64,000 nucleotides of DNA, from assembly GCF_054482595.1 (NCBI RefSeq), contig NZ_CM137008.1, one strand, 5' to 3'. This document shows, piece by piece, positions 57,001-60,000 of this stretch. How positions within the stretch are numbered: the stretch's first letter is position 1; the number at the start of each line of letters is the position of its first letter. The position numbers were made by a program.

Positions 57001-60000
57001 AGCTCGTAACGGGTCTGATACTGTGGTTTCATTTTCATATTCCTCACGGGGGATAACAGGCAGCAGAACGCCGCCGGCAGGCCGGAGATTGCGTCTGCTG
57101 TGGGTGAAGGGGCAGTGGTTAAAAATTACGGACGGGACTGTGCAATACGCGCCTGCAGCCAGGCTTCCACTTCACTTTTCAGCCAGCGGGAGCTGCGGCC
57201 AAGTTTGATGGGAGCCGGAAAGGCCCCATCCTTGATGAGCTTGTAAAACCACTTATCGGTCAGGCCGGTCAGCTGAGTGATAAACGCCATATCGACCATC
57301 TGGTCATCCATCAGCGAAACTGGGGGGGGGGTCATAAAAATCTCCTCCGGATGTTGTTAATCTCAACCGGCGTTGATGATGAAAACAACGCACCACCTTC
57401 ACCGGCATAACAACCGGGGAGAAACGTAAAAAATCAGTAGGGGAATATTCCTGCCAGGAGAGAAACGGTTGTGTACAGGCAATACAGGTTGTCTGTTTTG
57501 TCAGTGAAGCCGGTATAAACGGAAGATGATTTTGTGTTGCCGGAATATGGGATGGTATTTTGTCGTGACGGAATCAGTATTTTCAGTGATGATTATTACT
57601 GCGCAGGGGAGTACCGGAGAGAAACCACGCCCTGTACCTGCCAGAGCGGTGGTTTGTATTGACTGAACGGAAGATAAAGCGAGGTAAACACTGTTGTGGT
57701 GAGCGGAGAAGACTGAGATTATTCTCTGTAATTACAAACAACAGTGATCTTATCCGGTTTTTTTACCGTTACGGGTTTCAGGGGATCAATTTTATAGACC
57801 GGGGTAATGACCACGCCGTAATTTATGGAGAAAAGCGGGATCCAGCAATAAACGTCAGGATATTTCTGTGTCTCCGGAATACCTTTTGTGCCAGAGGCCA
57901 TCAGATCTTTAACGCTCACGAAAAATGACTTCCGCAGATCAAAAAAGTACTCGTTATATATCACATCCTTTGCCAGCAGGATGACTGCATTACCAACAGC
58001 CGATTTTACAGGTGTTTCATCAGGTGGATTATCGTGATTGTATATTGTTCTTTCTATATAAATAAAACAGGCATATTTCGTCTTCTCCCCGGATAGTTGC
58101 ATCTGGTATTCGCAAATGTCTTTGATATACCGACTTTCAACCCTTCCAATCATCTTATCCCGGCGATAGTGTCTTTTATGTTTCAGCGCGTACAGAACAC
58201 CATTTGAACTGTCAAACTCCAGGACACTTCTGGTGAAAAGTTTGTTTTCCCAGATCTCCAGACAATACTTCTCTGCACTGACGACATTGCGTTTGTGGGG
58301 AAGATTCCGTTGATACACTCCATTTAATAAGCGTGACTGCAGTTCGCCTGCAAGTTGATAGTAACAGTTAATGTCATTAAGGACAGGTGCTGTGGCGTTG
58401 GATTTGCCCCTATATTTCCAGACACCTGTTATCACTTAACCCATTACTGGCTTGCTGCCGTAGATATTCCCGTGGCGAGCGATAACCCAGTGCACTATGC
58501 GGATGCCATTCGTTATAATGCTCGAATGCCTCTGCAAGGTTCTTTGCTGCCGTTAACCCGTCTGGTTTGGGCATGACACTGATGTAGTCACGCTTTATCG
58601 TTTTCACGAAGCTCTCTGCTATGCCGTTACTCTCCGGACTCCGCACCGCCGTGTTCTTCGGTTCAAGCCCCAACATCCGGGCAAACTGCCGTGTTTCATT
58701 AGCCCGGTAGCATGAACCATTATCCGTCAGCCACTCTACTGGAGACGCCGGAAGCTCGTTGCCGAAACGGCGTTCCACCGCTCCCAGCATGACGTCCTGT
58801 ACTGTTTCACTGTTGAAGCCGCCCGTAGTGACCGCCCAGTGCAGTGCCTCACGGTCACAGCAGTCCAGCGCGAACGTGACTCGCAGTTTTTCTCCGTTAT
58901 CACAGCGGAACTCGAACCCGTCAGAGCACCATCGCTGATTACTTTCTTTCACAGCCACTCTGCCGGTATGTGCCCGTTTCGATGGCGGTACAGCGGGTTT
59001 TCGCTCAAGCAACAGCGCATTCTGGCGCATGATCCGGTAAATACGTTTGGCATTGATCGCAGGCATACCATCAAGTTCGGCCTGTCTGCGAAGCAGCGCC
59101 CATACCCGACGATAACCATATGTGGGCAGCTCTCCGATAACATGGTGTATACGGAGAAGCACATCCGTATCATCTGAGTGACGGCTGCGGCGACCATCTT
59201 TCCAGTCATCGGTTCGTCTGAGAATGACGTGCAACTGCGCACGCGACACCCGGAGACAACGGCTGACTAAGCTTACTCCCCATCCCCGGGCAATAAGGGC
59301 GCGTGCGCTATCCACTTTTTTGCACGCCCGTATTCAACGGCTTCTTTAAGGAGTTCATTTTCCATCGTTTTTTTGCCGAGCAGGCGCTGGAGTTCTTTAA
59401 TCTGCTTCATGGCGGCAGCAAGTTCAGAGGCAGGAACGACCTGTTCTCCTGCGGCCACAGCAGTAAGACTTCCCTCCTGGTATTGCTTGCGCCAGAGAAA
59501 TAACTGGCTGGCTGCCACACCGTGTTGCCGGGCAACAAGGGAGACTGTCATTCCCGGTTCAAAACTCTGCTGAACAATAGCGATCTTTTCCTGTGTAGTA
59601 CGCCGTCTGCGTTTCTCCGGTCCTAAGACATCAATCATCTGCTCTCCAATGACTAGTCTAAAAACTAGTATTAAGACTATCACTTAAATAAGTGATATTG
59701 GTTGTCTGGAGATTCAGGGGGCCAGTCTAGGCGTTGAGTAATGTGTTGATTACCTTAGAGCGCGAAAGTTTGTGGGTATGACAGTACTCATCCACAATTC
59801 GCAGTGTCTCATCACTGGTCATATTGAAAGTTATACGTGTTGTCATGATGAAGTTTTCTGTTAATCATACTGGTTGATATGCATAACATTTCATAAAAAA
59901 TACTGTTAATTCATATAATTGATTTTTTGACTGGTTTTATCCTCGTGTGGTGGAAAGCAGTATTACTGCCACTGTAGTCAGCATAAATCTATCACACAGA

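Follow-up and report, generated by a model that had tools for sequence, protein, structure and literature searches.

The window, by which we mean the whole stretch of 64,000 nucleotides analyzed from contig NZ_CM137008.1, carries an insertion sequence lodged between two open reading frames. This raises the question of whether the two frames are halves of a single gene and, if so, what that gene encoded, how recently it was broken and what its loss would mean for the genomic island around it. A first-pass annotation had described a full IS2 element flanked by perfect GGCGT repeats and splitting an AT-rich gene of unknown function. The description of the element was borne out by pairwise alignment with IS2A of E. 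coli K-12, which gave 95.6% identity, gapless and end-to-end over 1331 bp. Read in its own orientation, the element runs from TAGACTGGCC to GGCAAATCCA; no other copy of IS2 is present in the window. It has the two overlapping open reading frames, orfA and orfB, and the A6G frameshift site by which the IS2 group is recognized (Table 1). InsD differs from its K-12 counterpart at 10 of 301 residues, and RefSeq labels identical IS2 copies with "programmed frameshift". Since 100% identical copies of this element recur on numerous other chromosomes and plasmids of E. coli, the variant is a current and presumably active one.

Table 1. Features of the disrupted gene, of the inserted element and of their surroundings, with IS2 insertions of other strains placed at the equivalent window positions.
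Feature	Position	Strand	Remarks
Complete IS2 (IS3 family)	58399-59729	-	1331 bp; same orientation as the interrupted gene
IS2 ends	IRL at 59729, IRR at 58399	-	
IS2 orfA (insC)	59273-59638	-	121 aa; translation identical to K-12 InsC1
IS2 orfB (insD), transposase catalytic part	58410-59315	-	301 aa; open frame; 291/301 residues as in K-12 InsD1
Slippery site AAAAAAG (A6G)	59315-59321	-	programmed -1 frameshift giving OrfAB transposase; read in the sequence
Target-site duplication GGCGT, left copy	58394-58398		single-copy in the Santai empty site
Target-site duplication GGCGT, right copy	59730-59734		single-copy in the Santai empty site
5' fragment, codons 1-39	59730-59846	-	likely the whole CopG-like ribbon-helix-helix domain; ORF 59727-59846
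3' fragment, codons 40-263 and stop	57719-58393	-	joined to the 5' fragment without a break in 750 genomes
Imperfect palindrome GTTATGCAT-N10-ATGATTAAC	59860-59887	-	candidate operator or promoter element, 14-41 nt before the start codon
Terminator-like hairpin	57628-57648	-	70 bp past the stop codon; consensus scan only
Downstream alpA-like gene	57126-57335		separated by a 383-bp gap
Hha/YmoA-like ORF	60891-61031	+	46 aa here, 49 aa in the Santai annotation, 70-aa Hha in W2-5
YagK/YfjJ "inovirus-type Gp2" gene	61263-61862	+	
IS2 of GTEN_97	57621-57625		duplication GTTTC; 95 bp past the stop; element 100% identical
IS2 of FXCREC004	60366-60370		duplication GTGAA
IS2 shared by LR14 and 4FM	60574-60578		duplication GTGAG
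IS2 of MS20645, inside the same gene	about codon 77		duplication CTGAC; same orientation; allele 95-98% identical

The chance probability of a 5-bp flanking repeat alone is about 1/1024, and the other IS2 copies found nearby in other strains are bordered by 5-bp duplications as well. The flanks of the element proved to be 100% identical to strain O157:H16 Santai over 8.4 kb on the left and 4.3 kb on the right. The two Santai matches (4958323-4966721 and 4966717-4970987) have precisely 5 bp in common, corresponding to the lone GGCGT of an unoccupied target, and we regard this empty-site comparison as decisive proof of insertion. Not a single substitution separates the 12.7 kb of flanks from the empty-site strains, and queries spanning the insertion junction found it in none of the 5426 complete RefSeq E. 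coli genomes. MS20645, the sole apparent match to the junction, was rejected, as it harbors a separate IS2 insertion within the same gene. Because the duplication is perfect, the flanks are free of substitutions and the junction occurs in no complete genome, the comparison of sequences shows a recent transposition specific to this strain or lineage; a recent event had also been proposed at first reading, together with the openness of both fragments, which ORF reading confirmed.

In silico removal of IS2 and one GGCGT joined 117 nt, starting from the ATG at 59846, in frame to 675 nt. The reconstructed ORF of 792 nt (39 + 224 codons, stop at 57719) encodes the 263 amino acids anticipated by the first-pass annotation, and its GC content of 41%, compared to 51% for the window, agrees with the AT-richness that had been noted. 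An ORF 100% identical to it is present in seven complete E. coli genomes, each with one annotated 792-nt CDS, and the identical protein, WP_040235184.1, is named "hypothetical protein" by PGAP in older annotations and, more recently, "YagM family protein". Overall, the reconstructed ORF has matches in 758 of the 5426 complete E. coli genomes, and the search for uninterrupted alleles that had been suggested returned 750 of them at a minimum of 90% identity, where uninterrupted means that at least 80% of the gene length was matched in one place. Full-length homologues of 245-288 aa were also found in Citrobacter, Salmonella diarizonae, Pectobacterium, Aeromonas and others. These are 45-58% identical and span both fragments with no break at residue 39/40, placing the fragments in one gene as had been claimed, and the 13 closest sequences share 57 invariant alignment columns. 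Between E. coli alleles, dN/dS ranges from 0.35 to 0.7 (small counts), which indicates that the YagM-family gene is real but only moderately constrained.

The insertion point falls between codons 39 and 40, exactly where a CopG-like unit (see below) ends. The 5' fragment alone has the size of a CopG ribbon-helix-helix (RHH) unit, RHH antitoxins adjoining toxins are common, and an RHH_1 gene lies elsewhere in the Pectobacterium island, all of which would suit two separate genes, such as one for a small RHH antitoxin and, after it, one for a toxin, fused only by the in silico excision. This reading is nevertheless effectively refuted, and its probability is negligible. In empty-site genomes RefSeq has a single CDS with no stop at the junction, the full-length homologues in five genera are all single ORFs across both parts, and in an AlphaFold2 (AF2) model a helix of residues 29-62 continues unbroken across the junction. 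A single gene, very probably turned into a pseudogene by IS2, is accordingly the reading that we follow below.

What the intact gene encodes could be narrowed down by family assignment. All 28 homologues have a precomputed match to PF27701 (UCP007319), and pairwise comparison of K-12 YagM with the reconstructed protein gave 25% identity over residues 5-257 (E 3e-14). Scanning the protein and two alignments with hmmscan against a copy of Pfam-A that predates PF27701 yielded nothing useful, and NCBIfam, PADLOC and PHROGs scans assigned the protein to no family. When 1.84 billion representative proteins were searched with a profile, only 45 family members were retrieved, and the PF27701/YagM family, enterobacterial in distribution, is therefore small. 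In place of the "unknown function" of the first reading, we can speak of a member of the YagM (PF27701) family whose N-terminus likely holds an RHH domain. With the family profile, the top sequence match in PDB was the 45-residue repressor CopG, aligned to residues 1-38 at a weak E of 0.23, and a profile of the N-terminus matched CopG at a weak E of 0.06. The NCBIfam RHH family aCcr1 was matched with E 0.0025 and 17.7 bits against a cut-off of 60, DUF6364 was matched by one family member (E 9e-5), several members bear the UniProt name "CopG family", and Pfam RHH_1 gave no match to the N-terminal 39 residues. The AF2 model, built on a 30-sequence alignment (mean pLDDT 80; a model built on 13 close homologues reached 40 and was discarded), predicts a coil at residues 1-11, a helix at 12-25 and a second helix at 29-62 that crosses the insertion point, with pLDDT of 76-94 in this region. 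It is a model of the monomer, and the strand of an RHH fold is expected in the dimer only. Taking the sub-significant E-values together with this pattern, the N-terminal 39 residues likely form a CopG-like RHH unit.

The remainder of the protein, residues ~80-260, is predicted by the same model to fold as an alpha/beta domain. Foldseek against AFDB50 returned family members only and no informative relative of this C-terminal domain, which also had no significant sequence or fold match to ACT/NikR or to any solved structure. The architecture was unchanged across the 30-sequence alignment, which includes K-12 YagM, and across the wide family the only near-invariant residues of the C-terminal domain are F190, D191, G207, W223, P225 and P237. 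As a set, these do not look like a catalytic constellation.

Along the window, glcA, sslE and the gsp type II secretion genes are followed by a CP4-type genomic island. From ~41 kb the island carries genes for DUF4942, CbtA/CbeA, a RadC-like JAB protein, an antirestriction protein, Ag43 and a GTPase, and next come alpA-like, yagM-like, hha-like, yagK/yfjJ-type and zinc-ribbon genes. The hha-like and YagK/YfjJ genes are divergent from the yagM-like gene, with an intergenic region of ~1 kb (35-42% GC) in between. In other taxa, genes for AlpA, YagK/YfjJ (inovirus Gp2-like) or a P4-type integrase were found within 1-2 kb of the homologue in 7/8 loci, the eighth being a 3.6-kb contig (L017) too short to judge context, and the order and orientation of these neighbors vary among the loci. 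In K-12, yagM is located between yagL/yagK and yagN/intF. Such recurrent company in 7/8 loci and in K-12 argues that the YagM-family gene is a backbone component of AlpA / YagK-YfjJ / integrase islands.

Several further observations concern the island and its host. The Santai chromosome (NZ_CP007592, 4949000-4971000) contains the same island as window positions ~41000-64000, 100% identical over the 12.7 kb compared. There it lies beside cadC, on the pheU side, and in the window it directly follows the gsp operon, on the pheV side; the island therefore occupies different tRNA-Phe loci in different strains. A tRNA scan detected no tRNA genes in the window, so the attachment tRNA of the island lies outside of it. 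At positions 22000-46000, the sslE-gsp segment is ~96.6-98.5% identical to the best of the 5426 complete E. coli genomes, unlike the island part, which is 100% identical to several complete genomes, and the backbone of the source strain is unrepresented among them. Finally, window positions 54000-56400, between the alpA-like and GNAT genes, correspond to an identical Santai sequence (16833-18382 of locus L011) in which RefSeq marks several gene remnants, among them fragments of an AAA ATPase and of a hypothetical gene. Here the island is already decaying.

A clue to the role of the intact protein comes from the region preceding its start codon. E. coli, Citrobacter-like and Pectobacterium loci share the block GTTATGCA-N10-TATGATTAAC 14-41 nt before the ATG, and this palindrome is the sole conserved block in upstream regions that are otherwise unalignable among these loci. 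In a more distant locus (L019) this position is taken by a perfect TTATGCA-N12-TGCATAA, and conservation of the palindrome itself is confined to the closer subfamily. We tentatively propose a role for the intact protein as a DNA-binding regulator encoded by the island, a reading to which we give somewhat less than even weight. Its RHH N-terminus would be joined to a family-specific alpha/beta domain serving oligomerization or sensing, and it would probably bind the conserved palindrome upstream of its own start, resulting in autoregulation; the palindrome could alternatively be a promoter or 5'-UTR element. The regulator may act within an AlpA / YagK-YfjJ / integrase maintenance module, and its loss would then deregulate the module rather than remove an enzyme. 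The gene order relative to AlpA and YagK is variable, which weakens the case for co-regulation with these neighbors. It is unlikely that YagM proteins are instead RHH-tethered effectors of a new fold, either a self-repressing toxic or anti-phage module or a master repressor holding P4-integrase islands quiescent. Were this the case, selection on expression of the gene would account for the clustering of independent IS2 insertions in and around it, described next, with the leftover 39-aa RHH peptide acting as a constitutive repressor.

Counting that of the window, we found at least five independent full-length IS2 insertions from different strains within 3 kb (57621-60578) when five loci were compared (L020, L021, L002, L022 and L006). 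The yagM-like allele of GTEN_97, FXCREC004, LR14 and 4FM is identical to that of the window. With a median of about four IS2 matches per 5-Mb genome, only ~0.02 events would be expected over 3 kb in seven to eight island copies, compared to the five or more observed. The first-pass annotation had proposed testing the repaired gene for toxicity or phage resistance, and recurrent insertion, twice inside the ORF, could be taken as selection to silence a toxic or defense effector rather than as target preference. An AT-rich, horizontally acquired gene would suit such an effector, and in K-12 yagM is preceded by a Rho-dependent terminator that ranks among the strongest and has been discussed as silencing toxic prophage genes (PMC9160355). 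We nonetheless consider this quite improbable. The gene is uninterrupted in 750 of its 758 carrier genomes, the wide family has no conserved catalytic motif, and no known defense or toxin family or fold relative was matched by PADLOC (0 families), PHROGs (only E 0.05 or weaker) or structure search, leaving the suggested role with no evidence in its favor from these searches. Moreover, 3/5 of the IS2 events fall in intergenic DNA or 3' of the gene, with the ORF undamaged, and the cluster is therefore better accounted for by regional target preference than by selection against the gene. The IS2-rich stretch is AT-rich (35-44% GC), and a regional target preference of IS2 was reportedly described in phage P1 by Sengstag and Arber in 1983.

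As to the consequence of the insertion, an active IS2 transposed into the YagM-family gene of a tRNA-Phe-type island backbone, duplicating GGCGT. The first three IS2 bases (59727-59729) read TAG in the frame of the gene and stop translation immediately, such that the disrupted locus can produce at most a stand-alone RHH peptide of 39 residues. The 3' fragment lacks its own start codon, its frame being open as far back as a GTG at 58435, inside the IRR of IS2, and the 224-residue C-terminal part is left without a promoter or start codon. The insertion allele thus appears to be a recent strain-specific null or truncation, and we infer loss of function. The terminator-like hairpin, together with a gap of 383 bp, points to separate transcription of the downstream alpA-like gene, and strong polarity is therefore not expected; the count of terminator-like sites is not above shuffled expectation.

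The insertion might also have re-wired the gene, with the 39-aa RHH peptide still repressing its operator and the C-terminal domain being expressed by read-through from IS2 via the in-frame GTG at 58435, so that two activities would be uncoupled. A frame of 238 codons is indeed open from inside the IRR into the 3' fragment, and CopG is functional at 45 aa. IS2 ends are known to create hybrid promoters, as in the ampC case of Jaurin and Normark (1983). Re-wiring is, however, highly improbable here. Nothing resembling a promoter was detected by scanning the minus strand at the IRR junction, and the flank 17 nt on from the -35-like TGGAAA of IRR reads CGCCAC, where a hybrid -10 would need to be, and is not a -10. 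The GTG is preceded by no Shine-Dalgarno sequence, and a cut at residue 39 would take away two thirds of the second predicted helix. Activation of the 3' fragment by a hybrid promoter at the IRR junction was rejected as unlikely, with no site found. Loss of function thus remains the preferred reading of the allele.

In the literature, K-12 yagM was found in lists from high-throughput screens only, and a search under the family names found nothing indexed. ASKA over-expression clones enriched for H2O2/HOCl resistance include yagM (PMC8228696), and the Keio yagM mutant loses rifampin-induced persistence (PMC5845583). The feature itself is a routine, textbook IS2 knockout of an accessory island gene, of a kind already known and with a common intact allele. 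In terms of annotation, 57719-58393 and 59730-59846 belong together as one IS2-disrupted YagM-family pseudogene. The locus also points to a small family, with a likely RHH domain and an orphan-fold C-terminal domain, as a constant passenger of enterobacterial AlpA / YagK / integrase islands, and a natural null allele beside isogenic intact islands (Santai, SM107) provides convenient material for probing the role of this family.

Three known systems offer points of comparison. CopG/Arc/MetJ repressors with an added C-terminal domain, of the NikR type, would share with the protein described here a short N-terminal beta-alpha-alpha unit of ~40 residues for DNA binding and, after it, a distinct alpha/beta domain, as well as a palindromic element upstream of their own gene. 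They differ in that the C-terminal domain studied here lacks a significant match to ACT/NikR, and that DNA binding by the protein is only predicted. Another is K-12 YagM itself (b0279, cryptic prophage CP4-6), which has the same full-length architecture of an RHH-like N-terminus and C-terminal domain and shares the motifs FFD, G, CWIP and PV in the latter. Both genes reside in P4-integrase islands beside yagK/yfjJ-type genes. In contrast to the protein described here, to which it is only 25% identical, K-12 YagM has an N-terminal extension of 35 residues, and its neighbors in CP4-6 are the yagL resolvase gene and yagN instead of alpA-like and hha-like genes. Finally, the insertion resembles IS2 insertional pseudogenes such as K-12 yaiX::IS2A, in which a 1331-bp element with orfA/orfB and the A6G frameshift is likewise bordered by a 5-bp target duplication and leaves the host gene in two annotated fragments. 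The target gene and site are different in our case, and the element is a 95.6% variant of K-12 IS2A that is itself widespread.
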